The notes under the pieces are model-generated. The model did not search any database and had not been told where the DNA came from. It saw only the letters and a program-made list of their open reading frames with translations. From Treponemataceae bacterium (GTDB taxonomy: Bacteria > Spirochaetota > Spirochaetia > Treponematales > Rectinemataceae), in assembly GCA_963678065.2 (NCBI GenBank), contig CAXXVZ010000005.1, forward strand, positions 512,001-576,000: a stretch of DNA of 64,000 nt, written 5' to 3'. Shown one piece after another: positions 45,076-64,000 of this stretch. The position numbers and the translations under genes were made by a program. The stretch's first letter is position 1, and the number at the start of each line of letters is the position of its first letter.

Positions 45076-46421
45076 CGATCGGCCTCGGCGGCGGAGGGGA
45101 AGAGTCCCTGCATGAGGCCCTTCTTGTAGGTCTTGAGTTTCTCGATCTGAGCCGCCTGGGCGACGATGAGATCGTCGAGGGAGGAGAGACAGGAGGATAT
45201 CTTGATTTGTTCATCATACGATGGACGGTATAATGAGAAAGACCGGATCTGGGCAAAGTTTAATCCCTGTCTGTTCCCACCAGCCTGGAAACTATCGATT
45301 TGCTTCTGCCCAATTTGCGATAATAAGAACTGATTTAGGAAATAAGGATTTAGTGCGTGTTCCTTAGTGCGAATTATACAGACATGTTGATTAACATTGC
45401 CGCCATGTATTCTTGAATCCGCAACTGCGCTCCTTCCAATAGAGGCGCCGGTTATATTTAACAGGACATCTCCTTCTGTAACTTCAGTTGCTGAGAATGT
45501 TGAATGCGTAGCCTCGTCAATATTCACTACATCATCAAGAATCAAATTCCCCCAACCAACATTCTGGCTACGGATGAATGGCCTCCCACTTCTTTTGTAA
45601 TTCACCTCGCCGCCGAGGGGTGTAATACCGCTACCGACTTTTACAGTCAATCGACCAAGTTCATTCTCATCCCACTCCCCGGCATCCCTGAACTCCGGGA
45701 AACGCAGCCTCGGCACACTCTCTCCCTCCGCTGGGAAGAGCTGCTGCATGAGGCCTTTCTTGTACTTCTTGAGGGCATCGAGCTTTTTCGAGTGAGTGGC
45801 TATGAGAGCATCGAGGGATGAGAGGCAGGAGGCGATTTTTAGCTGCTCTGTTTTGTTCATCGGGTAGATAACATTTGTTTTATTTGCATTCTCAATCGTA
45901 TACGTTCCGACTGTCCCGATACCGGCAGCTTTAATTATTTGTTGTTGAATAAAGTCGCTAAGGAAAAGCATTAGCAAAAACGATCCAAGAATTTCATGTT
46001 CATCGTTCTGAAGCCAAATGATATTGCCGTCTTTAAAATAGAAGCGATCATGCAGTTTCACTAAATATGGAATACCAATTGAGCCAACTCCCGTAACTAG
46101 TAGATCACCAGCTTTTATTTCTCCACTCAGGTTAGTATTCACTTGATATAACTTTTCACTGATATATAGCGGGGAGATTCTTTCTCCGTTATTTAGGGCA
46201 ACTAACTCACGGGCGCGATAGAATGGCACCCCCTCCTTTGCCCAATCAGCTTCGTAAATTCGTTTGCACGAAGTTATATTCAGAACCTGTCCAAGATATT
46301 TCTCTTCCCACTCCCCCGCATCCCTGTATTCCGGAAAACGTAACCTAGGCACGCGCCTACCCGCATGCTTCGCCTGGGCGCGCGGCGGACTCGCGCGTAC
46401 GAAATCGCCTTTATTTCTCAT
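45072..46421 (-). CDS. hsdS: Type I R-M specificity subunit
   Basis: Two copies each of VPRLRFPE.RDAGEW and EQ.KI.SCLSSLD.LI...KKGLMQ.LFP around two AT-rich TRDs. The ATG overlaps the hsdR stop. Confidence 0.95.
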   Translation of the reverse strand: MRNKGDFVRASPPRAQAKHAGRRVPRLRFPEYRDAGEWEEKYLGQVLNITSCKRIYEADWAKEGVPFYRARELVALNNGERISPLYISEKLYQVNTNLSGEIKAGDLLVTGVGSIGIPYLVKLHDRFYFKDGNIIWLQNDEHEILGSFLLMLFLSDFIQQQIIKAAGIGTVGTYTIENANKTNVIYPMNKTEQLKIASCLSSLDALIATHSKKLDALKKYKKGLMQQLFPAEGESVPRLRFPEFRDAGEWDENELGRLTVKVGSGITPLGGEVNYKRSGRPFIRSQNVGWGNLILDDVVNIDEATHSTFSATEVTEGDVLLNITGASIGRSAVADSRIHGGNVNQHVCIIRTKEHALNPYFLNQFLLSQIGQKQIDSFQAGGNRQGLNFAQIRSFSLYRPSYDEQIKISSCLSSLDDLIVAQAAQIEKLKTYKKGLMQGLFPSAAEADR

Positions 46422-49639: not shown

Positions 49640-50317
49640 CTAGTTCGCCGATTCGACGATTGCCTTCAGATGTTCCATCCCCGAAAGCAGGCTGGAGAGT
49701 ACAGGCTTGCCCGTCGCCGCGACAAGCTCGTTCTCGATGACGGACATCGATGCCTGGGCGAGGAGAAAAACGTCCGCCTGGTCGGCCAGTTTGGCTGCAG
49801 TTTCGAGGATGATCCGGTTGTGGCTGGCCGCGTCCCCGCCGATGAGGGCCTGGAACGCTCCGTCGGCCAAGCCGTTCACCATGATGACATCGCGGTTTTC
49901 ACGCTTCGCCATCATTTCCACGTAGCGCATGGTCGGCCCGAGAGTCGTCGGGAGGGTCGCGAGCACGGCGATCCGCGTCCACTTCCGGACTGCCTGACGC
50001 GCCATCGCTTCGTCGATGCGGACGATGGGAATCTTCACGAAGCTGCGCGCAGCCTCGGTCGCGTCGCCGATCGACGAGCATGTCGTGAAGATGTAGTCGG
50101 CGCCGGCCTCTTCGGCCGACCAATAGTGGTAGAGGAGGCGCCTCGCCGAGGCAGAGGTCACGCATCCGTCGCGGATGACCTGGCCGATGTAGCCCTCGTC
50201 CACGATGTTGACGAGCCTGAGCTCGGGCATCATCTGTCTGAACAATTCGGTGCAACGCGACACCAGAGTGGGGGCCGTGTAGAAGGCCGCCACGGTGATC
50301 TGTCTGGATTGGTCCAT
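49640..50317 (-). CDS. Asp/Glu/hydantoin racemase-fold protein with a single catalytic-position cysteine
   Basis: TCSS, RIDEAMA and LATLPTT motifs. LAQASM stands where racemases have GCT. Confidence 0.75.
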   Translation of the reverse strand: MDQSRQITVAAFYTAPTLVSRCTELFRQMMPELRLVNIVDEGYIGQVIRDGCVTSASARRLLYHYWSAEEAGADYIFTTCSSIGDATEAARSFVKIPIVRIDEAMARQAVRKWTRIAVLATLPTTLGPTMRYVEMMAKRENRDVIMVNGLADGAFQALIGGDAASHNRIILETAAKLADQADVFLLAQASMSVIENELVAATGKPVLSSLLSGMEHLKAIVESAN

Positions 50318-50322
50318 ATTCG

Positions 50323-51144
50323 TCAACCTTTGAGCGATCCGGCCGTGAGGCCGTCGATTATGTATCGCTGCATCGAGAAATACACGATGAGCATGGGAGC
50401 CATGACGAGCATCATGAAGGCGAAGACGATGCCCCAGTTCGTCTGGTACTGCGAGACGAAGCTGTAGATCGAGATCATGATCGTCCACTTCCTGAAATCG
50501 GAAACGAGATAGAAGGAGCCGAAAAAGTCATCCCAGACCGCTATCGAGACGACGATCGTCGTGGTGACGACGACGGTCATAAGTAGGGGCATGACGATCT
50601 GGAAAAACATGCGCAGGTATCCGCAGCCTTCCAGTAAGGCCGATTCGTCGAGCTCCTTCGGGATCGTCTTCATGAATCCCGTCAGGAGGAAAATCGAGAA
50701 AGGAAGGTTGACCGCCATGTAGTACAGGATGATTCCGGGATACGTGTTGTGCAGATGGAGGCTCATCATGAGACGGATCGTCGGAATGATGGACACCGGA
50801 ATTATGAGGCCCAGAAAGAACACGAGGTAGGCGGCGCGGGAGAAGCGTCCCGGTCTTCTCTGGATCACGAAGGCCGCCATCGCCGCGAATATGTCGGTGA
50901 GAAGGACGGTCACCACACCGATTATCAGCGTGTTGAGGAATCCCCTGAGCACGGAGGGCTTCGAGAGCACGACGGAATAATTCTTCCAGACGAATTCCTT
51001 CGGCCAGGCGAGGCTGAAGAGGGCGGACTCGCGGGCGTTCTTGAAGGAACTGATGAAGATCATCGCGAAGGGCACGATTATCACGAGCGAGACGAGGGCG
51101 CTCGCGGCGAAGAGCGCTATCTGCGCGGGTTTTCTGGTTTTCAC
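50323..51144 (-). CDS. Carbohydrate ABC permease
   Basis: SSFK, W.NY, IPKELDESALLEG and YIIDGLTAGSLKG motifs. The GTG start overlaps the upstream stop. Confidence 0.92.
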   Translation of the reverse strand: MKTRKPAQIALFAASALVSLVIIVPFAMIFISSFKNARESALFSLAWPKEFVWKNYSVVLSKPSVLRGFLNTLIIGVVTVLLTDIFAAMAAFVIQRRPGRFSRAAYLVFFLGLIIPVSIIPTIRLMMSLHLHNTYPGIILYYMAVNLPFSIFLLTGFMKTIPKELDESALLEGCGYLRMFFQIVMPLLMTVVVTTTIVVSIAVWDDFFGSFYLVSDFRKWTIMISIYSFVSQYQTNWGIVFAFMMLVMAPMLIVYFSMQRYIIDGLTAGSLKG

Positions 51145-52052
51145 AGCTCGACCTCCCTCTTGCGGAGCCAGAACAGCACGGGGAAACCGATGGCGATGAT
51201 GAGGAGGGTGAGGAGAAGATTCGCCGCCGTGCCGTAGCCGTACCTGCCGAGACTGAACTCGCTCATCACGTAGGTGTTGACGACCTCGGTCGCGTAGCCG
51301 GGACCCCCGTTCGTGAGGACGAGTATCATGACGAAGACCTTCATGGTTCCGATGAGGGAGAGCACGAGGTTGACCGTCACCGATGGGGAGATGAGGGGAA
51401 ACATGATGTGGCGGAAGGTCTTCCAGTAGCGGGCTCCGTCCAGGGCCGCGGTTTCGTATAACTCCGTGGGTATCATCTGCAGTCCCGCGAGGTAGATGAC
51501 CATGGCGAAGCCCGAAGTGCGCCACACGTCGACCATGATCGTCGAGAAGAGGGCGTATTTCGGATCGTTGAGCCAGTCCACCGCGAGGAATTTCAGGCCG
51601 ACGAGCTTCAGCCCCTCGTTGAGCAGGCCGTGCGAGGGCTGGTAGATGGCCGTGAAGAGGTAGCCGATGATGAGGGGCGAAATGACGTAGGGCAGGAATA
51701 TGAGAGTGCGGAAGAGGTTCTGCATCCGGATCTTCGTGTTGAGCATGAGGGCCAGAAGAAGCCCGATCGCGTTGCGCAGGAAGGTCACGGCGAAGGCGTA
51801 GATCAGGGTGTTGACGAGGGCGGCAACGAGTTTTTTGTCCGCGAAGAGTTCGCGGAAATTCTGCAATCCGATGAACTTGATGCTCGTCGTGTTGATGTTC
51901 CAGTCCGTCAGGCTGTAGTACAGGCCGGTCAGCGTGGGGGTCAGGAAAAGCAGGGCAAAAACCCCGAGGGCGGGAAAGAGGAAATAGTAGGGATAGCCTC
52001 TTCGTGTGGATTGCGGCACGGTGTATTCAGCCTCCATGACGGTCGTTCGCAT
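51141..52052 (-). CDS. Carbohydrate ABC permease (start 52052 or 52037)
   Basis: YSLTDW, FIGLQNF, YLAGLQ.IP.ELYETAALDGA and TNGGPG motifs. Confidence 0.92.
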   Translation of the reverse strand: MRTTVMEAEYTVPQSTRRGYPYYFLFPALGVFALLFLTPTLTGLYYSLTDWNINTTSIKFIGLQNFRELFADKKLVAALVNTLIYAFAVTFLRNAIGLLLALMLNTKIRMQNLFRTLIFLPYVISPLIIGYLFTAIYQPSHGLLNEGLKLVGLKFLAVDWLNDPKYALFSTIMVDVWRTSGFAMVIYLAGLQMIPTELYETAALDGARYWKTFRHIMFPLISPSVTVNLVLSLIGTMKVFVMILVLTNGGPGYATEVVNTYVMSEFSLGRYGYGTAANLLLTLLIIAIGFPVLFWLRKREVEL

Positions 52053-52074
52053 CGTGTTTTTCGAAATGGAAAAG

Positions 52075-52113
52075 AAAGAGGCCGGCGGGCCACGCGGCGC
52101 TGCCGGCCTCTTT
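52075..52113 (-). terminator. Stabilising/terminating hairpin after the sugar-binding protein gene
   Basis: AAAGAGGCCGGC-N15-GCCGGCCTCTTT followed by CTTTT on the minus strand. Confidence 0.7.
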
Positions 52114-52124
52114 CCGCAGATGGA

Positions 52125-53399
52125 TCAGAATCCGGGAAGGGCGCGGGCCTTGCCGGTCTTGCGGAAGTTTTCGTCGAGCATGTCGAGGCCGGCCTGGACC
52201 TTGCCGTCCATGTAGATGGTCTGGATGATCTTCGGGTAGTCGGTGAAGGAGGAGGAGAGCCTGTTCTGGACATTGATCTTGGCTTTTCCGGCCTTCACGT
52301 AGGCGAGAACGTCGGCCTGGGCCGGGTAGAGGGTCGAGGTGGCTTCGGTGAAGACGGGGATGCCGGGCATGACCTTGTAGAGGATGTCCACGTTGGCCTT
52401 CTCGGTCATGAAGCGGACGAGTTCGACGGCTTCCTTGACGTTCTTGGTCAGGCGGGGAACGAGGATCTGGCCGGCGGGAGAGAGCATCGCGATGCCCTTG
52501 TCCTTGTCGGAGGGCAGGGGGAACCAGCCGACATTGTCGACCACGTACTGCTTGCCGAACTTCATTTCGAGGGCGGAGAGGAAGGCCGGGATCTGTGTGA
52601 CCATGGCCACCTTGTTCTGGCCGAAGAGCTCCTGCTGCTCCTCGTAGGTGCCGGCGAGAACGTTTTCCTGGACATAGCCGGCCTTCATGAGGTCGTACTG
52701 GCGCTGGAGGACATCCGCGAGGGCCGGGATGGCGTTCAGCCTGAGCTCGTTCTTCTCGAGCTTGCGCACGCCCGAGTCGCCGATGGCCGGGTCGACGAAG
52801 GTAGTCCAGCCGGAGAGGGAGAATACCTGGAGCGGCCAGCCGGTCTTCACGGCATCGTAGAGAGGAATGTAGCCCGCCGCCTTGGCGGCCTTGAGGATGG
52901 CTACGAAATCCGCCCAGTTGTTCGGCATGGATTTGCCGAGGGCCTTGAAGACGGCCTTGTTGTAGTAAACGCCCATGGATCCGGTCGAGCCCCAGGGAAT
53001 ACCGTAGATCTTGTCGTCGAGGGTCTGGAAATCGACGGTTGAGGGCGCGATCCTCTTGATGATCGGATCGTCGGTCCAGTCGTAGAGGGTCTCGTCGGCC
53101 CTGAACTTGATGTACTGCTTGGTGCCCGCGTCCATCTCGAAGAGGTCGGGATAGTCCTTGGTGGCGAAACGGGTCTGCATGAGGCGGCCGAATTCTTCGC
53201 CGGAGGGGAGGGCCTGGATTTCGACGGTGATTCCCGTCCTGGCCTTGAAGGCCGCGAAAATCTGCTCGTAGGCAGCGGGATTCGTCTCGTTCTTCATGAC
53301 GAATGTCAGGGTTTTCTTCGCCTGCGCGCTCACCGATGCGGGGACGAGAGTCGCGAGGATGGCGAGTGCGAGCAGGGACAACAGGATCTTCTTTTTCAT
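52125..53399 (-). CDS. Carbohydrate ABC substrate-binding protein (family 1)
   Basis: Signal peptide; KIYGIP, GVYYNK.VF and LKAAGYIP-like motifs; GGAGGTG RBS. Confidence 0.9.
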   Translation of the reverse strand: MKKKILLSLLALAILATLVPASVSAQAKKTLTFVMKNETNPAAYEQIFAAFKARTGITVEIQALPSGEEFGRLMQTRFATKDYPDLFEMDAGTKQYIKFRADETLYDWTDDPIIKRIAPSTVDFQTLDDKIYGIPWGSTGSMGVYYNKAVFKALGKSMPNNWADFVAILKAAKAAGYIPLYDAVKTGWPLQVFSLSGWTTFVDPAIGDSGVRKLEKNELRLNAIPALADVLQRQYDLMKAGYVQENVLAGTYEEQQELFGQNKVAMVTQIPAFLSALEMKFGKQYVVDNVGWFPLPSDKDKGIAMLSPAGQILVPRLTKNVKEAVELVRFMTEKANVDILYKVMPGIPVFTEATSTLYPAQADVLAYVKAGKAKINVQNRLSSSFTDYPKIIQTIYMDGKVQAGLDMLDENFRKTGKARALPGF

Positions 53400-53559
53400 C
53401 CAACACCTCCATTGATGGTCGGGATGACCACATTGCGCGCGGACCTCATTCAAAGGCCGCGCTTGATCGCGAAGACATAGAAAACATAAAACATATGATG
53501 TCTTATGCTTTGCAACTGCATGATACAGCCACTCTTGAAATCTGTAAAGAAAAATCTTT

Positions 53560-53589
53560 CGAAAAAAATCGAAAATATACGAAATAAAT
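53560..53589. promoter_or_regulatory. Candidate DeoR-type operator: three CGAAA repeats with a 10-bp period
   Basis: CGAAA at 53560, 53570 and 53580. Similar arrays occur at 61175/61185 and, in reverse, at 62039/62049/62059. Confidence 0.55.
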
Positions 53590-53641
53590 ACGCGCTGCGA
53601 GTGGCCACGAGTGACCGCTTTCCGGGTTCCCGGGCCTCCGG

Positions 53642-53716
53642 CCGTCGGCAGGGCCGGCGGCGGGGCCGACGCAGGGCCAGAGGCGGCACATTCCTCGCCT
53701 CTGGCCCTGCCGACGG
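53642..53716. terminator. GC-rich hairpin downstream of GH78 with a duplicated alternative arm
   Basis: 15-bp perfect stem 53671-53685/53696-53710; alternative 14-bp pairing 53642-53655/53703-53716. No U tract. Confidence 0.5.
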
Positions 53717-53728
53717 TCTTCGTCGGGG

Positions 53729-56512
53729 TCAGTCGACCGAAAGCCCGAAGGAGTACGACCCGGAGGCCACCGAGAGGCAGAGCCTGTCTTTGCGCAGCAC
53801 CGGCCCGGCGAGGAGCCAACGCGGCGCACCGCCGTCTTTGCCGGCGCTCTCCACAGAGCGGGCCGGGAGGAGCTCTCCGGATTCCGAAAGGACGGGATTC
53901 TCCCCGTGAACCGGAATCTCGAGCTCGGCCGTGACGCCCACGGGAAGGTCGACGGCGATGGAAAAGCCCTTCTCACTCCGCTTCCACGACGCACAGACGG
54001 TGCCGCGGATCGTGTCGACCTTCGCCCCCGCGTGATTGAGGTCATCGAAGGCGTAAGGCTTGATCCGCAGGCTCCGCCATCCGGCTTCGAGCGGCACGAT
54101 GCCGCCGAGGCTGCGGTAGAACCAGGCATCGACCGAACCGAACATGATGTGGTTGTGGCTGTTCATGCCCATGCCGCCGAGTTTTTCCCAGCGTTCCCAG
54201 AGTGTTGTCGCGCCCTCGGCGACCATGTAGCCCCAGCCCGGGTAACTCGTCTGCGTGACGATGGCCCAGGCGAGGTCGGCGCGGCCGCCCTCGCGCAGCA
54301 CCTCGAGAAGGTAGCGCGCTCCGACGATGCCCGCGTCGATATGGCCGTCCGCGTTTTTGACCACCGCTTCGACGAGTCGGGCGAAGGCTCTCTCCTTCTG
54401 CCCCGCGGGGACCATGTCGTGGTAGATGGGCAGAGCCTGGGAGGTCTGGCCGACTGTCCTGTCGATCTTGCTCATGGGAACGGTCGCGTAGCGGCCGTCG
54501 GCCAGAAGGAATTCCGCGTTGAAGGCCGCCGCGATCTCCGCGGCTCTTGCGGCATAGACGGCTGCCTCGCCGTGCTTCCCGAGAACCGCGGCGATCCGGG
54601 AGAACACGAGCGTGTCGTTGTACAGGTACCAGGTCGAGGTGAGCTCGATCGGGGTTTTCTTGGGGTAGATGCAGCCGGGCGGGCACCAGTCTCCGTAGCG
54701 GCCGAGCGAGTCGTTGATGTGCCCCGGAGAGTTCGCGTCGAGGAAATCGACGTAGCGCCTCATGCCCTCGTAATGGCGTTCGAGGATCTCGAGGTCGCCG
54801 TACATGGCGTACATGGCCCATGCGAGGGTGACGTAGGCGCTGCCCCAGGCGGGGTCCGTCGGGTAGAGGGGCCAGTAGGGCGGCACGACATCGGAGAGGC
54901 TGCCGTCCGTAAGCTGGGCGAGGCGGATGTCCTCGAGGTATTTCGCGTAGAAACCGGCCATGTCGAAGTTGTTGCAGGCTTCCTCGCTCGCGAGCTGGGC
55001 GTCGCCGAGCCAGCCCATGCGCTCGCCGCGCTGGGGACAGTCGGTGGGTGCGCTCATGAGGTTGGAGAGCTGTCCCCAGAGAATGTTGGAGTGGATTCTG
55101 TTCACGAGTTGGTTCGAGCAGAGGAAGGCGCCTGTCCTCTCGACGTCGGTGTGGATGACGAGGCCTTCGAGGGTATCGACCGTCGGTATTCCGGGAAATC
55201 CCCTCAACTCGGCGTAGCGGAAGCCGTGATAGGTGAAGCGCGGTTCGAAGGTCTCGAGGCCTTCGCCCTTCAGGATGAAGAGGTCCGAGGACTGGGATTC
55301 ACGGTTCGTCCCCAGATTGAGGCTCCCCGATCCGGTCAGAAGTTCGGAGAAACGTATTCTGATCCCTGTGCCGCGCGGTCCCTCGGCTCTGAGTCGGACA
55401 ACGCCGGAAAAATTCTGGCCGAAGTCGAAGATGTGGACGCCGGGTTCGGGGGAAGACAGGGCCCGGGCGGGCATTGTCGCGACGACCCTGATCGGGGGGA
55501 GGACTTGAGCCTCCAGCTTCGGGCCGTCCACTATTTCCGCCGGGCGCCAGGCGGAGTCGTCGAATCCCGGGAGATCCCAGCCGGGCTGTTCGAGTCGGGC
55601 GTCGTAGACCTCGCCCGAGTAGATGCCGTTGTGGACGATGGGGCCGTGGGATGTCTTCCAGGAGCCCTCGCTCACGACGACGCGCCTCGCGCCGTCGTCG
55701 AACTCGAGGAGGAGCTGAAGCATGAGGCGGGGCTTCCCGAAACCGTAGGCGTCGACGTAGCGTCCGTTGCCGAGGATGACGCCGAGGGCGTTCTCTCCGG
55801 TCCTGAGGGAGTCCGTGACATTGTGGACCGAGTAGAGGGCGCGGAGACGGTAGTCGGTCTGGCCGGGGTCGAGGCGGTTCCGCCCGGCCCGGCGGCCGTT
55901 GACGAAGCACTCGTTGTAGCCGAGGCCGCAGACATACATGCAGGCGCGGACAGGCAATCTCTCCAGCGAGAAGCTGGAGCGAAGGTAGATGCCGTGGTAG
56001 AGGCGCGCGGCGACGTGGCGGTTGTTGTTGATGTCGCCCTCGACGAGCAGCACGGTCGTCTCGTCGAATTCCGGCTCCGGCATGGAAATCCACGAGGACT
56101 TCCAGGAATCCGGATCGAGGATGGCTGTCTCGAAGGAGGAGAGGGCCCAGGGGCTCTCGGCGAGATCGACGGCATCGGCGCCGCTCTTCTTTTCGCCGGT
56201 GGCGGCGCACCATATCTTCACCGCCCAGAAAAACCGCGTACACTCCGGCAGACCGGCACCGCCGAAGCGGACGAGGTTGTTCTCTCCCGATTCGACCTTC
56301 CCGGAATCCCAGACTGCGCCGACGCCGGCCAGGGCAGATTCTTTGTCCCGGGAGACGATTATGCGGTAGGCTTTCTGGGTCGATCCCCGGCGCTCGTCGC
56401 GGGGTACCCACGAGAAGCGCGGCTTCGCGGTGTCGACAACCACCACCGCGGAGCTGTCAGCCTCGAGAGGCTCCGGCATGTGTTCACACTTGAGTCCGCT
56501 TATCCGTATCAC
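53729..56512 (-). CDS. Alpha-L-rhamnosidase (GH78)
   Basis: WDSGKV, DFGQNFSG, FTYHGFRY, PTDCPQRGERMGWLGD, GDW, GATTLWERW and SHNH motifs. Confidence 0.92.
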   Translation of the reverse strand: MIRISGLKCEHMPEPLEADSSAVVVVDTAKPRFSWVPRDERRGSTQKAYRIIVSRDKESALAGVGAVWDSGKVESGENNLVRFGGAGLPECTRFFWAVKIWCAATGEKKSGADAVDLAESPWALSSFETAILDPDSWKSSWISMPEPEFDETTVLLVEGDINNNRHVAARLYHGIYLRSSFSLERLPVRACMYVCGLGYNECFVNGRRAGRNRLDPGQTDYRLRALYSVHNVTDSLRTGENALGVILGNGRYVDAYGFGKPRLMLQLLLEFDDGARRVVVSEGSWKTSHGPIVHNGIYSGEVYDARLEQPGWDLPGFDDSAWRPAEIVDGPKLEAQVLPPIRVVATMPARALSSPEPGVHIFDFGQNFSGVVRLRAEGPRGTGIRIRFSELLTGSGSLNLGTNRESQSSDLFILKGEGLETFEPRFTYHGFRYAELRGFPGIPTVDTLEGLVIHTDVERTGAFLCSNQLVNRIHSNILWGQLSNLMSAPTDCPQRGERMGWLGDAQLASEEACNNFDMAGFYAKYLEDIRLAQLTDGSLSDVVPPYWPLYPTDPAWGSAYVTLAWAMYAMYGDLEILERHYEGMRRYVDFLDANSPGHINDSLGRYGDWCPPGCIYPKKTPIELTSTWYLYNDTLVFSRIAAVLGKHGEAAVYAARAAEIAAAFNAEFLLADGRYATVPMSKIDRTVGQTSQALPIYHDMVPAGQKERAFARLVEAVVKNADGHIDAGIVGARYLLEVLREGGRADLAWAIVTQTSYPGWGYMVAEGATTLWERWEKLGGMGMNSHNHIMFGSVDAWFYRSLGGIVPLEAGWRSLRIKPYAFDDLNHAGAKVDTIRGTVCASWKRSEKGFSIAVDLPVGVTAELEIPVHGENPVLSESGELLPARSVESAGKDGGAPRWLLAGPVLRKDRLCLSVASGSYSFGLSVD

Positions 56513-57492
56513 AGTTTTTTCCTCCCCGCGGCGGCCCGCGCCGCGGTTTTTATGTCAGTTATGGACATCCCATATTTGTCGAGAAGGGCCTCGCCCTCAC
56601 CCGATTCGGGAAAGACGTCGCGAAGTCCCATTCTCTCGATGGGTACAGGGTACCATGCGGCGGCGGTTTCCGCGATGGCGCTGCCGAGACCGCCGATTAC
56701 GGTATGGTCCTCGAGTGTAAGAGCGGCGCCCGTCCGAGCGAGCACGGAGGCCACGGTGCCCGTATCCAGGGGCTTTATCGTGTGTACTTCGACGACGCAG
56801 GCGCCGAAGCCTTCGTCTTTCAGTTCGGCGGCGGCGCGCAGCGCCCGCGCAAGAATGGAGCCGCAGGCAAAAATGGCCAGATCATCGCCGTAATTCGCGT
56901 GTATCCGCGCGGCTCCGGGCAGGAATCCCGAGCCCGCGGGCAAGACCCGCGCGTCCTTGCTGCCCGCGACGCGGAGGTAGGCAGGACCGGGCTTCTCGAA
57001 GAGGCTCTCGAAAGCCAGCCCCGCCTGCTCGGGATCGCAGGGGGAAAGGACCCTGAAACCGGGGATGCTCCGGACGATGGAGAGATCCTCGAAGAACTGG
57101 TGGGTGACCCCTTCCCTCTCCCCGGCCGCGATGCCGCCGTTGGCGCCGACAAACTTGACGTCGAGACCAGTGTATCCGACAAAAGTCCTCAATTGCTCGC
57201 AGGCCCTCATGCTGAGAAAGCCCGCATAGGTGGCGACGATCGGTCTGAAGCCGCAGGAGGCGAGGCCGACCGCAAAGGAGACGGCCTGCTGCTCGGCTAT
57301 ACCGACGTCGAAGATGCGGTCGGGGAATCTGGCCGCGAAGCCTGCCATCCTCATCGCCTTGACCGAGTCAGGGCAGACGACGACGATTTTCGGGTCGCGC
57401 TCCGCGAGCCTCAGCGCCGCGGCGGCGACAGCCTCCCGCATGTTGGCGTATTCCGGCCTGTCCGGAGCTGTCGCAAGAAGAGTCGCGTTCAT
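56509..57492 (-). CDS. Split transketolase-family enzyme, C-terminal subunit (pair 1)
   Basis: DVGIAEQ, RACEQLR, EGVTHQFFED, TIKPLD and EDH..IGGLG motifs. Confidence 0.9.
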   Translation of the reverse strand: MNATLLATAPDRPEYANMREAVAAAALRLAERDPKIVVVCPDSVKAMRMAGFAARFPDRIFDVGIAEQQAVSFAVGLASCGFRPIVATYAGFLSMRACEQLRTFVGYTGLDVKFVGANGGIAAGEREGVTHQFFEDLSIVRSIPGFRVLSPCDPEQAGLAFESLFEKPGPAYLRVAGSKDARVLPAGSGFLPGAARIHANYGDDLAIFACGSILARALRAAAELKDEGFGACVVEVHTIKPLDTGTVASVLARTGAALTLEDHTVIGGLGSAIAETAAAWYPVPIERMGLRDVFPESGEGEALLDKYGMSITDIKTAARAAAGRKKL

Positions 57493-58313
57493 CGTGTTCC
57501 TCCCAGGGCTTCCATGGCCGCCGCGTATTCGGCCGCAGTGGGCACCTTCTTGTGCCAGGCGTTCTCGTTCTCCATGAAAGGGACGCCCTTCCCCTTCACC
57601 GTCTTCGCGACGATCATCGAGGGCCTCCCCTCAACGCGGGCCGCCTCGCCGAGGGCGTCGAGGATCTGCGCCATGTCGTGGCCGTCGATCTCGCGGACAT
57701 GCCAGCCGAAGCTCGCGAAGCGCGCTCCGATGTCGCGCATGCCGCTGACCTCCTCGATCCGGCCGTCGCCCTGGAAGCCGTTGTTGTCGACAATCGCGAC
57801 GAGACGGTCAGCCTTGAACCTGACCGCGGAGATTGCGGATTCCCAGACGAGGCCTTCGTTGAGCTCGCCGTCGCCGAGCAGGACATAGACCCGGAAGTCG
57901 GCCCCGAGCATGCGGGAAGCCACGGCCATGCCCGATCCGATACCGATGCCGTGGCCGAGGGAGCCCGCGGTCATGTCGACGCCGGGCGTCTTGTTCATGT
58001 CGGGATGGCCCTGCAGGGGCGAGCCGAGGGTCCTGAGCGTCGCAAGGAGGTCCGGGGAAAAGTACCCTCGCCGCGCGAGCGCCGCGTAGAGCACGGGACA
58101 GGCGTGTCCCTTCGACAGGATGAACCTGTCGCGGTCGGCTTTACGCGGGTCGGCCGGGTCGACGCGCATGACCGAGAAGTACAGCGCGGCGACGATATCG
58201 GCGGCCGAAAGAGAGCCGCCCGCGTGGCCGTCCCCCGATTCCCGGATCATGGTGACGACATCGCGCCGGAGCGTCCGCGCGATCTCTTCAAGCCGGGCTG
58301 TTTCATTGTTCAT
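57489..58313 (-). CDS. Split transketolase-family enzyme, N-terminal ThDP-binding subunit (pair 1)
   Basis: GHAGGSLS, RDRFILSKGH, LQGHP, GDGELNEG..WE and WH motifs; start MNNET. Confidence 0.9.
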   Translation of the reverse strand: MNNETARLEEIARTLRRDVVTMIRESGDGHAGGSLSAADIVAALYFSVMRVDPADPRKADRDRFILSKGHACPVLYAALARRGYFSPDLLATLRTLGSPLQGHPDMNKTPGVDMTAGSLGHGIGIGSGMAVASRMLGADFRVYVLLGDGELNEGLVWESAISAVRFKADRLVAIVDNNGFQGDGRIEEVSGMRDIGARFASFGWHVREIDGHDMAQILDALGEAARVEGRPSMIVAKTVKGKGVPFMENENAWHKKVPTAAEYAAAMEALGGTR

Positions 58314-59112
58314 GGTTCTGCCTTTGCCCCGAGATCGAGGCCTCATGATCGGAACCCTCATTGTCGAGGCCCTCATGATTGAGGAACCTCCAGACATCGT
58401 CGTGTTCGCGGACCATGTCGAGGGCGAGTGAGAGATTGCGCTCGCGCAGTGCCCGCGCCAGCTTCAGGTGCGTCTCAGTGCCGAACCCGGGCCTCATCGT
58501 GGGGGCGAGGAGGTCGATCACGAAGGTGTATACGTTCGCTACGAGGCGGTTGTGGGTCAGCCGTCCGAGTTCGGTGTGGTAGCGCTTGTCGATATCGAAG
58601 AGCGCCCGGGATGCCGGCGGAAGGAGCGCTTCGGGGACCTCGCCGGCTTCGCGCACTCCACCGGCCCCGCCGGCCGCGCACGCTTCGCTCGCGGCCATTT
58701 CCGCGCAAATCTTCTCGATTCCGTCGAAATCCGAGTCCCCCGCGCGGTCGATGATGAGCCTGATGACGCCCTCCTCGACCAGACTCCGGAGCTCCGCGAG
58801 CTCCCCGATCTCGCGCGAGGTGACGAGAAGATTGAACAAGAGCGGATCGAAGAGCATGCCGCCGGACGAAGTCGCCACGTAGGTCCCGTTTCCCCTGCGG
58901 ATCTCGACCACCCCGAAGGCCGAAAGTATCTTCATCGCCTCCCGGATGGAGCCCCTGCTGATCGCCAGAGTCGAAGCGATCTCGTTCTCGCTCGGAAGGA
59001 GATCGCCCGGCTTGAGCTTCCTGTCGATGAGGAGTTGCCTGATCGTCGAGACGACTGTCTCCACGGCCGTGTGGGAGCGATCCCTCGGCGGGAAGACTTC
59101 CAGAACGGGCAT
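58303..59112 (-). CDS. GntR/FadR-family regulator
   Basis: LKPGDLLPSE...ISRGSIREA...G.VEIRRGNGTYV plus an FCD-like C-terminus. Confidence 0.9.
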   Translation of the reverse strand: MPVLEVFPPRDRSHTAVETVVSTIRQLLIDRKLKPGDLLPSENEIASTLAISRGSIREAMKILSAFGVVEIRRGNGTYVATSSGGMLFDPLLFNLLVTSREIGELAELRSLVEEGVIRLIIDRAGDSDFDGIEKICAEMAASEACAAGGAGGVREAGEVPEALLPPASRALFDIDKRYHTELGRLTHNRLVANVYTFVIDLLAPTMRPGFGTETHLKLARALRERNLSLALDMVREHDDVWRFLNHEGLDNEGSDHEASISGQRQNHEQ

Positions 59113-61085
59113 CAGACCCACCGGAGGGGCAGCCAGACGCTCATCTCGCTCTGCCCCCTGTTGTCCCACGCGAAGTAGGGCAGAAATGTCGCAAAGATGT
59201 CCTCCATGGACCACTTCCCGAGTTCTGTGTAGAGCCCCTCTGAGGGCTCGCGCGCTTCGCCGGCGAGGCCGGGGGATGAAAGGCGGCACACAGTCCCGCG
59301 CAGAAGAGTCATGCCCGAGAGCGCCCCGCTTCCTTGCAGTGTCCCGAGGCGAATCGCGGTCGGGATGTAGACCTCATCCAGTTTCGTCCCTTCGGGCAGA
59401 TCCTTCGATTCGAGGCAGTAGACGATGGGGCCTCTCAGGATGGCCGCCTGGTTGCGGGTCTCCTCCACGAGGTGGTGGGCGAGGACGAGTCTCGGGTTCA
59501 TGGGCAGGTCGAGCTCGATGATGTCGCCCTTCTTCCACGCGCGCGTCACCGGAAGGTAGCTGCAGGGCCGGATTTCCTCTTCGCAGGCGCTCCCGTTGAC
59601 CGAGACGCTCGCCCCTCTGGCCCAGGAGGGAATCCTGAGCGAGATCGCGAAGGCGCGACCGGGAACCTCGGCCAGCTCGATATGGATCTTCCCGTCCCAG
59701 GGATAGTCCGTCTTCTGCGACAGCGAAACCCGACTGCCGTCCGCGAGGCTCGTGGAGAGGCTGTTTCCCCCGTAGAGGTTCACGGTCAGCCCCTCCCGGG
59801 TGATGCCGTAGGCCATGGCCCCGGCCCCCGCGATCGTCCTGAGGACATTGGGAGGGCAGCAGAAGCTCGAGAGGTAGCGGCTCCTCGTCCGGGGCCAGCG
59901 GAGCGAGAAGGGAAGCGCCCGCTCCTGACGCAGGGCGTTCTGGTAGAAGAATTTCGTGCCGTCCAGACTGATTCCGGAGAGCACGCTGTTGTAGAGGACG
60001 GTCTCCACCGTGTCCATGAAGCGGGCCTCGCCCGTGATCCTGAACATGCGCCAGTTCCACAGGGCGTTGCCGATGTTGGCGCAGGTCTCGTTGTAGGCTG
60101 TCATGTTGGGCAGCTGATACTCGCGGCCGTAAGCCTGGTGGATGCGCTGGATGGCCCAGTGGTCCTCGTCGCCGTCGGGCGATACCCCATCGTAGAGGGC
60201 GCCCGTGGCCCCCGTGATGTAGGTCTTGGTGTGCGCGACGTTCTTCCATATCGACTCGAGCGGTTCGAGGAGGCTCGGGTCTCCGTTTTCCGCGTAGACA
60301 TCGGCGGCGCCCGAGTACAGATAGTTGGCGCGGACGGCGTGGCCGACGGCCTTCCTCTGGGCGCGGAAGGGTATTCTGTCCTGGTTGTCGTCGGTCCCGT
60401 CCTTTATGATGTCGCGGCTGTCGATGAGGGCGGCCGCGAGCTCCACGTACTTTCGCTCTCCGGTCTGACGGTAGAGGTCGACGAGGCCCATGAGGTGGGA
60501 GGGACAGATGTTGTTCTTGGCCGTCTCGGGATCGGGGTTGCGGAAGCGCTCGATGAGATAGTCGGCGACCCTGCGGGCGACGGCGAGGAGGCTGTCCTTG
60601 CCGGTAGCCTGGGCGTGCCTGCAGGCCGTCGTCATGAGGTGGCCGAAGTTGTAGACCTCGAAGTGGAGGCGGTCGCCGGCATCGCGTTTTCCCACTTCGC
60701 TCCCGTTCTTCTGGGCGATGAGGACAGGGGTGTGGAGGTAGCCGTCACCACGCTGGGCCGCCGCGATGACCGCGATGACCTCGTCCATGAGGCGGTCCAA
60801 CTCCGCGTCCTGAGTCTGCGCGTAGATATCCGCCACCGATTCGAGCCACTTGTAGAGGTCGCCGTCGAAGAAAGGCGGGCCGGAGTGCCTCCCTTCTTCG
60901 AGCCCGGCGGCAATCCTGAAATTCGCGAAAGCGTGGCTCAGGGCGGGATCGTCCAGGATTTTCCACATCGAAGGGATCATCGTCGTGTGGCAGCGCGCGA
61001 TGCGTCCCGCCCAGAAGCCGTTCTCCCATTTCACATCGGCGACCGCGGGTTCGGCGACGCGGGCATAAGGACTTATCTTCACCAT
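59112..61085 (-). CDS. GH127 glycosidase with Gln at the acid/base position (aceric-acid-hydrolase-like)
   Basis: DGDLYKWLE, GHAVRANY, YITGA.G, HQAYGREYQLPNMTAYNETCA, CCPPN and PYFAW.NRG motifs; GAGGAGG RBS; no signal peptide. Confidence 0.88.
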   Translation of the reverse strand: MVKISPYARVAEPAVADVKWENGFWAGRIARCHTTMIPSMWKILDDPALSHAFANFRIAAGLEEGRHSGPPFFDGDLYKWLESVADIYAQTQDAELDRLMDEVIAVIAAAQRGDGYLHTPVLIAQKNGSEVGKRDAGDRLHFEVYNFGHLMTTACRHAQATGKDSLLAVARRVADYLIERFRNPDPETAKNNICPSHLMGLVDLYRQTGERKYVELAAALIDSRDIIKDGTDDNQDRIPFRAQRKAVGHAVRANYLYSGAADVYAENGDPSLLEPLESIWKNVAHTKTYITGATGALYDGVSPDGDEDHWAIQRIHQAYGREYQLPNMTAYNETCANIGNALWNWRMFRITGEARFMDTVETVLYNSVLSGISLDGTKFFYQNALRQERALPFSLRWPRTRSRYLSSFCCPPNVLRTIAGAGAMAYGITREGLTVNLYGGNSLSTSLADGSRVSLSQKTDYPWDGKIHIELAEVPGRAFAISLRIPSWARGASVSVNGSACEEEIRPCSYLPVTRAWKKGDIIELDLPMNPRLVLAHHLVEETRNQAAILRGPIVYCLESKDLPEGTKLDEVYIPTAIRLGTLQGSGALSGMTLLRGTVCRLSSPGLAGEAREPSEGLYTELGKWSMEDIFATFLPYFAWDNRGQSEMSVWLPLRWV

Positions 61086-61240
61086 GAATTCCTCCTCAGG
61101 CACGGAGTCAGGTCAATGTTATACATCATACGTCTAATGTTTATATCGACATCTTTGCCCTGTCAAGGGCGAATCGAAAAAAGTCGAAGGCACGACATTT
61201 TCGAAAACTTCTGCTATACTCAAGGCCAACGGAGATCCAC

Positions 61241-62035
61241 ATGGCCCGAAAAGACACAGGCGGCAACGAACTACTCGCCCAGGAACGCAGACGGAAGATA
61301 CTCGAACTCCTGCAGGAAGAGGGAAGCGCGCGGGTGCGCAAGCTCAGCGCCCTCTTCAAGGTCTCGGAGCCGACGATACGGCAGGATCTGGAGAAGCTCG
61401 ACCAGGAAGGCTTCGTGACCCGCGAGCATGGAGGGGCCTTTCTCCGCACCGTGTCGCAGCAGGTGGGCTCCCAGTCCCTCCAGCACAACGACAATCTCGA
61501 CCGGAAGCTCCTCATCGCGCGCCGGGCCGCGGCCCTCGTGCGGCCCGGAGACCGGATCATCCTCGACTCCGGCTCGACCATAACGGAACTCGCCAAGTGC
61601 CTCAAGGATACTCCCGACCTGACCGTCATCACCAACGCCCTCAACATCGCCCTCATCATGGGCACCAACCCCAGCTGCAAGCTCATGGTCACGGGAGGCG
61701 AGTTCAAGGCCCCCACCCTCTCCCTCACCGGCGAAAAAGCCGCCCTGTTCTTCCGCAACATCTATGTCGACAAGCTCTTCCTGGCCACCGGAGGAATTTC
61801 CCCCAGCCTCGAACTGACCTACCCGGGATTCTCGGACCTCGTCGTCAAACAGGCCATGATCGACGTCTCGCGGGAGACGACGGTCCTCGCCGACTCGACA
61901 AAATTCGGCAAGGCCTCTCTCGCCTCTCTCGGCTCGATGGGCTTCGCGACTCGTATCATCACGGACGAGGGCATTCCGGAGGAAATTCGCGCGAAGATCA
62001 AGGATCTGGGCGTGGAAGTCATGATCGCTTCCTGA
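61241..62035 (+). CDS. DeoR/GlpR-family regulator
   Basis: ERRRKI...VSEPTIRQDL..L, R.HGGA, LDSGST, VITN and LADSTKFG motifs. Confidence 0.93.
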   Translation: MARKDTGGNELLAQERRRKILELLQEEGSARVRKLSALFKVSEPTIRQDLEKLDQEGFVTREHGGAFLRTVSQQVGSQSLQHNDNLDRKLLIARRAAALVRPGDRIILDSGSTITELAKCLKDTPDLTVITNALNIALIMGTNPSCKLMVTGGEFKAPTLSLTGEKAALFFRNIYVDKLFLATGGISPSLELTYPGFSDLVVKQAMIDVSRETTVLADSTKFGKASLASLGSMGFATRIITDEGIPEEIRAKIKDLGVEVMIAS

Positions 62036-62070
62036 TACTTTCTATTACTTTCGAATTTTTTCTTTTTATT

Positions 62071-62100
62071 TTGACATTTTCCTCGAATCCAGTATACAAT
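62071..62100 (+). promoter_or_regulatory. Sigma70-type promoter for transketolase pair 2
   Basis: TTGACA, 18-bp spacer, TACAAT, preceded by an AT-rich tract with 10-bp-periodic TTTC repeats. Confidence 0.7.
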
Positions 62101-62214
62101 CCTCATGACCGTCCCGAGGCTATCATTCCGCGGGGCGGGCCGGGCAAAGCGGTGCATGCGTCGGGAACGACCTCCGTGCCACGCTGCCGGGAATACACGA
62201 TGAGGGAGGACCGG

Positions 62215-63063
62215 GTGAACGAAAACATACCCCTGTCCCGAACGGCGGCAGAAATACGAAAAAACATCGTCCGCATGGTCACGCGGGCAGGTGGCGGACA
62301 CATCGGCGGCTCCCTGTCCTCCGTGGACATCCTGACCGCGCTCTTCTTCCACTCCATGCGCCACGATCCTGCGAATCCGCGCGCTCCTGACAGGGACAAA
62401 TTCATCCTGAGCAAGGGTCACAGTGTCGAAGCCTACTACTGCGCCCTCGCGCGCTCGGGCTACTTCCCCGAAGCCAGGCTCCTCGACTACGGCGTCTTCG
62501 GCAGCGAACTCTACGGCCATCCTACGAAAAAGATCCCCGGCATCGAAATGCCGACCGGGGCCCTCGGCCACGGACTCTCCGTCGGGGTCGGCATCGCCAT
62601 CGGGGACAAACGGGACGGGAGGGATTGCAGGAGCTTCGTCCTCATGGGCGACGGGGAGCTCGCCGAGGGCTCGGTCTGGGAGGCAGCCATGGCCGGGGCC
62701 CACTACGGCCTCGACAACCTCGTCGCCATCATCGACTACAACAAATTGCAGATATCGGGCCAGGTGGACAGGGTCATGAGAAGCTCCGATCTCGGCGAAA
62801 AATGGCGGAGTTTCGGATGGGATGTCATCGAGACGGAGGGCAATAACCCCGATTCCCTCGCGCGGGTCTTCGATTCCCTGAAACCGGCCGGCGGCATGCC
62901 CCGCGTCGTCATAGCCCACACGACCAAGGGCAAAGGAGTATCCTTCATGGAGAATCTGGCAGTCTGGCACCATAAATCGACGAGTGAGGACGAATGCGAC
63001 CGGGCCATCGCCGAGATCGACGAGGCCATCGCCCGGTCCGAAAACTGTGGAGCGGGATCATGA
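62215..63063 (+). CDS. Split transketolase N-terminal subunit (pair 2; AptA-like candidate)
   Basis: GHIGGSLS, ILSKGHSVEA, TGALGHG, GDGELAEGSVWE and WHH motifs; GGGAGG before the GTG. Confidence 0.9.
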   Translation: MNENIPLSRTAAEIRKNIVRMVTRAGGGHIGGSLSSVDILTALFFHSMRHDPANPRAPDRDKFILSKGHSVEAYYCALARSGYFPEARLLDYGVFGSELYGHPTKKIPGIEMPTGALGHGLSVGVGIAIGDKRDGRDCRSFVLMGDGELAEGSVWEAAMAGAHYGLDNLVAIIDYNKLQISGQVDRVMRSSDLGEKWRSFGWDVIETEGNNPDSLARVFDSLKPAGGMPRVVIAHTTKGKGVSFMENLAVWHHKSTSEDECDRAIAEIDEAIARSENCGAGS

Positions 63064-64000
63064 GTTCCAGCGGTTTCAGCAACAGACACGCCTTCAGCCG
63101 CACTCTTCTGGAGGAAGCCCGGGCCAATCCCGCCATCTACGCGGTCACCTCGGACGCGCGGAACTCGGTCACCATCCAGGATTTCGCGACGGCTCTTCCC
63201 GGACAGTTCGTCGAGGTGGGCATCGCGGAACAGGACGCCGTGGGCATCGCGGCCGGACTCGCCATCGTCGGGAAGCGGGTCTTCGTCTGCGGCCCCGCCT
63301 CATTTTATTCGGCGCGCAGCCTCGAGCAGGTCAAAAACGATGTCGCCTACGCTGGCTCCGACGTCAAGGTCATAGGCGTATCCGGCGGCGTCAGCTACGG
63401 CGCCCTCGGAGGAACCCACCACTCGCTGCACGATCTGGCCGTCATGCGCACTTTTCCGGGCCTGCGCGTCTTCCTGCCCTGCGACGCCTACCAGACGGCG
63501 GCCATAACCCGGCTCATGGCTTCTAATCCCTGGCCCTGCTACATGCGTACAGGCAGGGATCCTTCGGCGGAGGTCTACCCAGCCGGATGGAAAGGGAGCT
63601 TCGAGGCGGGCGCGGCCGTGATGCTCAGGGATGGGGCTGACGGCGCCATCGTGGCGGCGGGAGAGACGGTCCAGAGCGCTCTCGGCGCGGCCGATATCCT
63701 CGCTTCGCGCGGAATCGGTGTCAGGGTTCTCGACTGCTGGTCCATCAAACCCTTCGACAGGGGGGCCATAGAAGCGGCGGCCAGAGAGACCGGCCTCATC
63801 GTCACGGTGGAGGAGCACAGCGTTTTCGGCGGTCTCGGTGCCGCGGTGGCCGAGGCTGTGGTACAATCCACTCCCGTGCCGGTAAAAATCATCGGCTTCC
63901 CGGACGAGTGGGCCCCTGCCGGGAACGCCCGCGAACTCTTCGACTATTACGGTCTGTCCGCGGGCAAACTGGCGGAGAGCGTGGAATCCGCAATTCGTGA
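63060..64000 (+). CDS. Split transketolase C-terminal subunit (pair 2); runs off the window end
   Basis: ATGA overlap at 63060. My translation gives VTSDAR, EVGIAEQ, ARSLEQVKNDVAY, GVSYGALGGTHHS, SIKPFD and EEHS..GGLG. Not in the ORF track because there is no stop in the window. Confidence 0.9.
   Translation, partial: MSSSGFSNRHAFSRTLLEEARANPAIYAVTSDARNSVTIQDFATALPGQFVEVGIAEQDAVGIAAGLAIVGKRVFVCGPASFYSARSLEQVKNDVAYAGSDVKVIGVSGGVSYGALGGTHHSLHDLAVMRTFPGLRVFLPCDAYQTAAITRLMASNPWPCYMRTGRDPSAEVYPAGWKGSFEAGAAVMLRDGADGAIVAAGETVQSALGAADILASRGIGVRVLDCWSIKPFDRGAIEAAARETGLIVTVEEHSVFGGLGAAVAEAVVQSTPVPVKIIGFPDEWAPAGNARELFDYYGLSAGKLAESVESAIR

Follow-up and report, generated by a model that had tools for sequence, protein, structure and literature searches.

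The window analysed in this study is a stretch of 64,000 nucleotides from a Treponemataceae bacterium (contig CAXXVZ010000005.1), and it corresponds to C5:512001-576000 of the genome G000 (5.27 Mb, 5 contigs). Its last part carries a sugar locus with two split transketolases, pair 1 and pair 2, each encoded as an A subunit and a B subunit. We conclude that this locus is rather probably an utilization locus for side chains of rhamnogalacturonan-II (RG-II), in which two branched sugars, aceric acid and apiose, would be led into two transketolase routes. The gene content, the two transketolase clades and the conserved neighbourhoods are observed directly, and the substrates are deduced from sequence comparison. 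Aceric acid is known only from RG-II, the most complex plant cell-wall glycan. An initial annotation of the window had proposed the use of both sugars, with pair 2 acting on apulose-4-phosphate and pair 1 coupled to a GH127 enzyme, and this interpretation is supported by the comparative evidence. It contained neither the finding that pair 1 has a racemase-fold gene as its characteristic partner, nor the alternative back end of a kinase and a RuBisCO-like protein (RLP) that is present in other loci. The annotation knew of no described catabolic route for aceric acid, and our literature searches likewise turned up none. They gave glycosidase and review papers only, with no aceric acid catabolism and no link between aceric acid and a transketolase.

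Pair 2 and a probable apiose route

The domains in the window were assigned with Pfam, and the gene starts were refined afterwards. All the genes named by the initial annotation, including those for GH127, the FadR-type regulator, GH78, the importer and the DeoR regulator, are present. The two transketolase pairs had been described as clearly different; indeed, their A subunits are 43% identical and their B subunits 38% identical, and they fall into separate clades. As G000 encodes 12 split transketolase pairs, a tree was needed for orthology. The tree of concatenated subunits contained 22 split transketolase pairs, and the E. coli SE15 sequences of AptA, AptB and AplK came from the record given by PMC13001218. 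According to this tree, which had been suggested as a check, pair 1 belongs to a separate clade with a support of 100/100, and neither pair is an ordinary full-length transketolase.

Pair 2 was expected to be AptAB-like. Pair 2 and two close relatives are grouped with a support of 100/100, and they are joined with two Verrucomicrobia pairs (85/69) and with E. coli AptAB (86/80). The clade of seven rows with a support of 100/97 contains pair 2, its relatives and AptAB, and also the G000 paralogue C4:43002. In the B-subunit tree, the corresponding set of 13 rows has a support of 95. All members of the AptAB clade (12/12), among them E. coli AptB and pair 2, carry a Leu signature. The same position is Asp in four of the nine other paralogues and in the solved split transketolase 6YAJ, and this Asp of ordinary split transketolases presumably binds the hydroxyl group next to the acceptor aldehyde. 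The A subunit of pair 2 is 48% identical to E. coli SE15 AptA, and it is the best match of AptA in G000 (244 bits vs 218 bits for the next one). The clustering and the Leu signature agree with the expected AptAB-like character.

An apiose isomerase and an FGGY kinase had been anticipated beyond position 64000. The kinase is located there and is 37% identical to E. coli AplK. An isomerase is also located there, but it is FucI-like (PF02952) and not the TIM-barrel type. The family expected next to AptAB is ApsI, which we take to be a TIM-barrel protein of a family other than the FucI-like one. When the FucI-like protein was searched in the ESM Atlas, generic names only were returned. A literature search for apiose isomerase gave the E. 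coli apiose paper alone, and a search combining apiose, apulose and transketolase gave nothing. That paper describes growth on apiose for E. coli strains with the apiose cluster (ST131), and an apiose cluster that lacks ApsI and uses two short-chain dehydrogenases/reductases (SDRs) instead (PMC13001218).

The FucI-like gene adjoins an AptAB-like transketolase in all five further genomes searched (5/5), and an FGGY kinase accompanies them wherever the contig is long enough. Two of these FucI-adjacent transketolases reach 54-62% identity to E. coli AptA/B. In five phyla, pair-2-type transketolases have an AplK-like kinase and a FucI-like isomerase as neighbours. Downstream of the module at one locus (L042) come genes for a Peripla_BP_4 binding protein with 34% identity to its E. 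coli counterpart, for DUF2291 and for an ABC ATPase, which matches the arrangement in E. coli. According to these comparisons, pair 2, the FGGY kinase and the FucI-like enzyme probably make up a modified form of the D-apiose transketolase route, and we regard apulose-4-phosphate as the likely substrate of pair 2.

Two observations stand beside this module. In the relative G010 (L014), the FGGY kinase gene is missing between the pair 2 B gene (ends at 9903) and the FucI-like gene (starts at 9928), and the cluster is otherwise colinear. The AptAB-clade paralogue of G000 is located at C4:34054-44769 (L098) together with genes for a DeoR regulator, a Zn-dependent alcohol dehydrogenase, a TRAP carrier, an SDR and a xylose-isomerase-like TIM-barrel protein. 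The paralogue C4:43002 was set aside as a candidate for the real apiose cluster, since its neighbours include no kinase; the region may represent another kinase-free route.

GH127 and GH78

The best solved relative of the window GH127 is PDB 5MQO (E 4.5e-211, ~60% identity), which we take to be BT1003, the GH127 aceric acid hydrolase of Bacteroides thetaiotaomicron. The architecture of three domains is complete, as PF07944, PF20736 and PF20737 all match. The motif HQ(A/S)YGR..QLPN.TA.NETCAN is common to the two proteins, and both ETCAN and FCCPPN are kept. The segment containing the Gln reads HQAYGREYQLPN in the window protein and HQSYGRPYQLPN in 5MQO. The Gln column of the two proteins is Glu in the arabinofuranosidase 4QJY. 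This column is presumably the acid/base position, which we assume to be Glu in HypBA1-type enzymes. Both the identity of 5MQO as BT1003 and the acid/base position are reportedly due to Ndeh et al. 2017. Against the NCBIfam model AcerHdlse NF049879 (aceric acid hydrolase), GH127 scores 908.4 bits, just short of the cut-off of 950. GH127 likely frees aceric acid from plant pectin; the reaction expected for the BT1003 type is release of L-aceric acid from AceA-alpha-1,3-Rha.

The best solved relative of GH78 is 6I60 (E 1.2e-264). As stated in the initial annotation, neither GH127 nor GH78 has a signal peptide; no hydrophobic N-terminal stretch was found by inspection of the sequences. Because neither hydrolase shows a signal peptide, import of the substrate followed by cleavage in the cytoplasm by GH127 and GH78 is plausible.

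Pair 1 and the racemase-fold protein

The pair 1 clade comprises 6 rows at 100/100 in the concatenated tree and 28 rows at SH-aLRT 100 in the B-subunit tree. All B subunits of the clade (28/28) carry the signature GEREG(V/P)(T/S)HQ, in which an Arg is inserted. The Asp of ordinary split transketolases is replaced in both the pair 1 and the pair 2 clades. Loss of a phosphate-binding Arg in pair 1 was also considered and dropped, as the alignment shows the Arg shifted by two positions in most members.

The pair-1-type transketolase adjoins a racemase-fold gene with one catalytic cysteine across Spirochaetota, Planctomycetota and Bacteroidota, and these loci are often located beside genes for Gln-type GH127, GH2, GH29 or GH78. 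Co-occurrence with the Gln-type GH127 had been proposed for inspection, and adjoining genes of the two types are found in three phyla. Below, the genes for the racemase-fold protein, the subunits of the two pairs and the solute-binding protein are written as race, tk1A, tk1B, tk2A, tk2B and SBP, and our working numbers for loci and genomes begin with L and G. In three relatives of the same family, one colinear cluster has the order GH127-GH78-SBP-permease-permease-DeoR-tk2A-tk2B-(FGGY)-FucI-AKR-race-tk1A-tk1B (AKR, aldo-keto reductase). Thus, the two divergent operons of the window are one unit elsewhere. A Sedimentisphaerales metagenome-assembled genome (MAG) has GH2-GH29-GH127->tk1A->tk1B->race->SBF, and Odoribacter has GH127->race->MFS with an aminotransferase gene, tk1B and tk1A on the opposite strand. 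In a Spirochaetales MAG, a TAL-like gene, tk1B and tk1A are divergent from SBP-permeases-GH127. In a Bacteroidales genome, race->MFS is located beside a GhrB-like reductase gene, tk1B and tk1A, in a block with GH78, GH141, GH2 and BNR_2. Enzymes for 2-oxo acids, namely an aminotransferase (L085) and a GhrB-like reductase (L110), follow tk1B in two Bacteroidota. Carriers of the carboxylate type (TRAP, SBF, MFS) and FCD regulators accompany the module, and they fit an acid substrate. GntR/FCD homologues adjoin the pair-1-type loci L136, L141, L177, L189 and L191. The genes race, tk1A and tk1B are contiguous in G003, G018 and G020, and a TRAP carrier and a transaldolase-like gene follow them in G003 and G018.

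In the racemase-fold protein, the first Cys is kept (TCSSIG), and the second Cys position reads AQ(G/A)SM in 38/38 aligned homologues; the two catalytic cysteines of Asp/Glu/hydantoin racemases are not both present in any of these 38 sequences. The AlphaFold2 (AF2) model has a pLDDT of 94 and matches racemases at template modelling (TM) scores of 0.63-0.80. The nearest folds are hydantoin, Asp and Glu racemases with 12-17% identity, and only generic racemases were returned. A protein search with the sequence also gave generic names only. The gene is rare, being present in 4/301 sampled genomes of the phylum and in 6/41 relatives. All four relatives with a BT1003-like GH127 (4/4) also have it. 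Three weak matches (34-38% identity) in other members of the phylum lack an adjoining transketolase and were not counted as orthologues.

In the reverse test, a metagenome scan from the racemase-fold alignment gave 80 loci, and the 38 loci of at least 6 kb were counted. The partner of the racemase-fold gene is a pair-1-type transketolase in 17/38 loci, an RLP with a DUF1537 kinase in 14/38 and neither in 7/38; both together were found in 0/38. A BT1003-like GH127 is present in 6/80 racemase-fold loci, with the Gln motif in the four caught by the motif search. The Gln-type GH127 occurs in both the transketolase-type and the RLP/kinase-type loci. Operons with these genes are GH78->GH127->RLP->kinase->race->SBF (L207), GH2->GH127->RLP->kinase->race (L195) and GH2->GH29->race->GH127 (L175). 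The RLP scores best to OiaX (508 bits) and the kinase to OiaK (376 bits), and neither score reaches the cut-off (700). Of the enzymes, the racemase-fold protein is the one common to both kinds of locus. These results incline us, by a small balance, to the view that aceric acid is degraded by the racemase-fold enzyme together with pair 1.

The DUF1537 kinase and the RLP were found neither in the window nor in its flank. The sole RLP match in G000 is located at C3:1293056 and is 28% identical to the OiaX-like RLP of L207; at C3:1293056-1296048, this RLP gene directly adjoins the split transketolase pair with the greatest divergence in G000. Four loci (L139, L149, L167, L181) have a two-component system (histidine kinase and AraC-type response regulator), with race, RLP and kinase genes after an ABC importer. 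The binding protein of this importer is 46-49% identical to that of the window, which indicates that the same type of importer serves both back ends. A small GDSL esterase gene recurs beside the module (L015:18041-18676, L129:7924-8565, L165:10284-11387), and its match in G000 (65% identical) is located at C3:1754332-1754814, near a second GH127 paralogue. Aceric acid carries an O-acetyl group in RG-II, and this esterase might strip it.

Proposed pathway

In the proposed pathway, an oligosaccharide capped with aceric acid would be imported and cut in the cytoplasm by the BT1003-type GH127 and GH78. The racemase-fold enzyme would convert L-aceric acid (3-C-carboxy-5-deoxy-L-xylose) to a 2-ketose, 2,4-dihydroxy-2-(1-hydroxyethyl)-3-oxobutanoate. 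Pair 1 would then cleave the C2-C3 bond of this ketose, beside the tertiary carbon, as AptAB does with apulose-4-phosphate. The glycolaldehyde unit would be passed on, and 3-hydroxy-2-oxobutanoate, or lactaldehyde if decarboxylation precedes, would be released. The 2-ketose isomer of aceric acid corresponds to 3-oxo-isoapionate with an added methyl group, and from this we infer that the racemase-fold enzyme makes the ketose and pair 1 cleaves it. The same homology would account for the replacement of pair 1 by OiaK-like and OiaX-like genes; elsewhere, an OiaK-like kinase and an OiaX-like RLP would take the place of pair 1 after the racemase-fold enzyme. The predicted 3-hydroxy-2-oxobutanoate fits the aminotransferase and the 2-hydroxyacid dehydrogenase found after tk1B in two Bacteroidota. 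This specific chemistry of aceric acid is put forward as a tentative scheme. It is possible, and in our estimate rather less than probable, that the racemase-fold protein is a cofactor-free aldose-ketose isomerase for aceric acid whose beta-keto-acid product feeds interchangeable back ends, which would make this the first catabolic pathway for aceric acid. In the second route, the FucI-like enzyme would isomerize D-apiose to apulose, which would then be phosphorylated by the AplK-like FGGY kinase. The apulose phosphate would be split by pair 2, with release of dihydroxyacetone phosphate and transfer of the two-carbon unit to an aldehyde acceptor.

The locus and its relatives provide a short list of candidate genes for aceric acid breakdown, with suggested intermediates. 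If the proposal is true, transketolase cleavage beside a tertiary carbon, known from apiose, would have a second use, and if the isomerase reading is true, the racemase superfamily would have a new type of reaction. The locus also suggests that free-living spirochaetes scavenge small RG-II fragments released by other degraders.

Alternative explanations

Several observations weigh against the two-route proposal. On the apiose side, the best match of AptB in G000 is another paralogue and not pair 2, and the best match of AplK is a GlpK-like gene elsewhere in the genome (40%) rather than the adjoining FGGY kinase. The kinase-less paralogue C4:43002 lies inside the AptAB clade, and both this paralogue and E. 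coli AptAB have long branches. On the aceric acid side, the score of GH127 is below the NF049879 cut-off of 950; GH127 of the relatives G010, G016 and G020 is likewise under the cut-off, and the B. thetaiotaomicron control is above it. The nearest solved relative of GH78, 6I60, is presumably a general rhamnosidase rather than an established RG-II enzyme. A GH127 alignment scan with one genome per species yielded 80 loci with 48-66% identity, which belong to Verrucomicrobiota, Planctomycetota, Bacteroidota, Bifidobacteriaceae and Spirochaetota. Within about 10 kb of GH127, a pair-1-type transketolase was found in 3/80 loci, the racemase-fold gene in 4/80, a pair-2-type transketolase in 3/80 and a FucI-like gene in 3/80; ~70/80 loci have none of these, many of them on short contigs. 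G003 (94% complete) and G018 (80% complete) have race-tk1AB and no BT1003-like GH127 match, and no racemase-fold match was obtained for two Verrucomicrobia genomes that carry GH127->FucI->tk2->FGGY. A transaldolase/FSA-like gene, which the scheme does not explain, accompanies pair 1 in 15/24 transketolase-type loci (7 of them added genome loci). Several of the metagenome loci are near-duplicates, so that the counts overstate independence. No aldose-ketose isomerase is known to belong to the Asp/Glu racemase superfamily. Examples of the transaldolase/FSA-like gene are located at L129:509-1564, L130:6020-7126, L014:17268-19034 and L021:3937-5139, and an orthologue in G000 (50% identical) is unlinked at C5:719322-720362.

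Part of this evidence would suit a module of the racemase-fold protein and pair 1 that degrades another acidic sugar of RG-II, such as 3-deoxy-D-lyxo-hept-2-ulosaric acid (Dha) or 3-deoxy-D-manno-oct-2-ulosonic acid (Kdo), or another plant acid sugar, GH127 being nearby only through the clustering of RG-II genes. The TRAP, SBF and MFS carriers and the FCD regulators suit any acid sugar, BNR_2 and DHDPS-family genes adjoin the module in L085 and L110, and G003 and G018 carry the module without the GH127 match. However, the direct operon partners are enzymes for chain B, namely GH127 (Gln type), GH2, GH29 and GH78, the alternative back end is nearest to OiaK/OiaX, which act on a branched 3-oxo acid, and Kdo and Dha, as 3-deoxy-2-keto acids, would suit an aldolase. 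We thus judge this explanation to be improbable. It is also conceivable that aceric acid, instead of apiose, is processed by the FucI-like isomerase, pair 2 and the FGGY kinase, with pair 1 and the racemase-fold protein acting further downstream or on another substrate. Aceric acid and fucose are both deoxy sugars (5-deoxy and 6-deoxy, respectively); GH127 is directly upstream of FucI->tk2A->tk2B->FGGY in L032 and of the FucI-like gene in L054, and close in L042; and the two Verrucomicrobia genomes have this arrangement without a racemase-fold match. Against this, pair 2 clusters with E. coli AptAB and carries its Leu signature, and the FucI-adjacent transketolases reach 54-62% identity to AptA/B. 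In addition, an isomerized 5-deoxy ketose would have no terminal hydroxyl group for a kinase that leaves C1 free for the transketolase. The E. coli cluster supports growth on apiose (PMC13001218). Aceric acid as the substrate of pair 2 is therefore quite improbable in our estimation. The 12 split pairs of G000 might even suggest that both pairs are interchangeable transketolases for ordinary pentose-phosphate shuffling, and that their place beside the glycosidases would mean nothing specific. As the orthologues of each pair in other phyla keep these neighbours and carry clade-specific active-site motifs, and as the Asp of ordinary split transketolases is replaced in both clades, we give this explanation very little weight.

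Organization of the locus

The features of the locus are listed in Table 1. From GH127 through GH78, neighbouring genes overlap by 1-4 bases, and such tight packing indicates that the cluster is no chance arrangement. The solute-binding protein begins with MKKKILLS and has a hydrophobic stretch by inspection of the sequence; no ATPase gene for the sugar ABC importer was found in the cluster. The DeoR regulator is 70-73% identical in the relatives, and its gene is always located upstream of pair 2. The aldo-keto reductase of the DeoR operon is not orthologous to the one at the same place in the relatives (26-38% identity), and neither was assigned a role. TatD and EamA genes come after it, beyond the end of the window.

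Table 1. Features of the sugar locus in the window and in its downstream flank.
Feature	Position	Strand	Basis and remarks
Racemase-fold enzyme, one catalytic Cys, 225 aa	49640..50317	-	Pfam Asp_Glu_race (PF01177); candidate first enzyme of aceric acid catabolism
ABC permease 2	50323..51144	-	Pfam BPD_transp_1; 60-63% identity in relatives
ABC permease 1	51141..52052	-	Pfam BPD_transp_1; 75-79% identity in relatives
Solute-binding protein of sugar ABC importer, signal peptide by inspection	52125..53399	-	Pfam SBP_bac_8; 82-84% identity in relatives
GH78 alpha-L-rhamnosidase	53729..56512	-	Five GH78 Pfam domains
Split transketolase pair 1, B subunit (Pyr and C domains)	56509..57492	-	Pfam Transket_pyr+Transketolase_C
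Split transketolase pair 1, A subunit (thiamine diphosphate, ThDP, domain)	57489..58313, start possibly up to 58397	-	Pfam Transketolase_N
GntR/FCD (FadR-type) regulator	58303..59112	-	Pfam GntR+FCD
GH127, BT1003 (aceric acid hydrolase) type	59112..61085	-	PF07944, PF20736, PF20737
Divergent AT-rich intergenic region, 155 bases, between GH127 operon and DeoR operon	61086..61240		Sequence inspected
DeoR-family regulator	61241..62035	+	Pfam HTH_DeoR+DeoRC
Split transketolase pair 2, A subunit (AptA-like)	62200..63063	+	Pfam Transketolase_N
Split transketolase pair 2, B subunit (AptB-like)	63060..64115, window ends at 64000	+	Pfam Transket_pyr+Transketolase_C
FGGY kinase	64112-65677	+	Beyond window end; DeoR operon
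FucI-like isomerase	65670-67139	+	Beyond window end; PF02952 is the sole Pfam match
Aldo-keto reductase (AKR)	67244-68245	+	Beyond window end; DeoR operon

The sugar locus is bordered by a type I restriction-modification system (HsdM, HsdS, HsdR) at window positions 41521-49377, in which nucleotidyltransferase and AAA genes are inserted between M and S. Bases 1-45000 of the window carry peptide importers and restriction/defence genes unrelated to the sugar locus. The split transketolase pairs of G000 are mostly located in separate sugar-utilization contexts, for example at C2:7455, C2:116395, C2:241793, C4:30952, C4:43002, C4:83272, C4:506485, C3:2316980 and C5:1032950. No obvious full-length housekeeping transketolase was noticed in G000.

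Comparison with known systems

The D-apiose transketolase pathway with ApsI, AplK and AptA/AptB is said to have been described in Carter et al. 2018. A split transketolase that groups with AptAB, an FGGY kinase, an aldose-ketose isomerase and the cleavage of a ketose beside a tertiary carbon are common to that pathway and the present locus. In the present locus, the isomerase is FucI-like and the regulator is DeoR, whereas ApsI is a TIM-barrel protein. That pathway has a monosaccharide importer, whereas an importer for RG-II oligosaccharides and glycosidases would be attached here.

BT1003 and the window GH127 are alike in the three-domain build, the Gln, ETCAN and FCCPPN, and the identity of ~60%. 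BT1003 belongs to a Bacteroides polysaccharide utilization locus, whereas the window GH127 has no signal peptide, is probably cytoplasmic and would be fed by an ABC importer.

The oxidative D-apiose/D-apionate routes reportedly also come from Carter et al. 2018. OiaK and the RLPs OiaC and OiaX act on 3-oxo-isoapionate. Some other bacteria combine the racemase-fold gene with OiaK-like and OiaX-like genes, and the proposed intermediate is a methyl homologue of 3-oxo-isoapionate; here, pair 1 would replace the kinase and the RLP. As aceric acid already carries a carboxyl group, an ApnO-type oxidoisomerase would not be needed. These routes with OiaK and OiaC/OiaX are taken up in PMC13753588.

A further likeness is found in the sulfo-transketolase pathway (SqwGH), which is a known pathway. 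There, a split transketolase acts on a non-phosphorylated acidic sugar without a kinase, as is proposed here for pair 1. The substrate of SqwGH is different from the one proposed for pair 1, and the likeness lies in the described chemistry.

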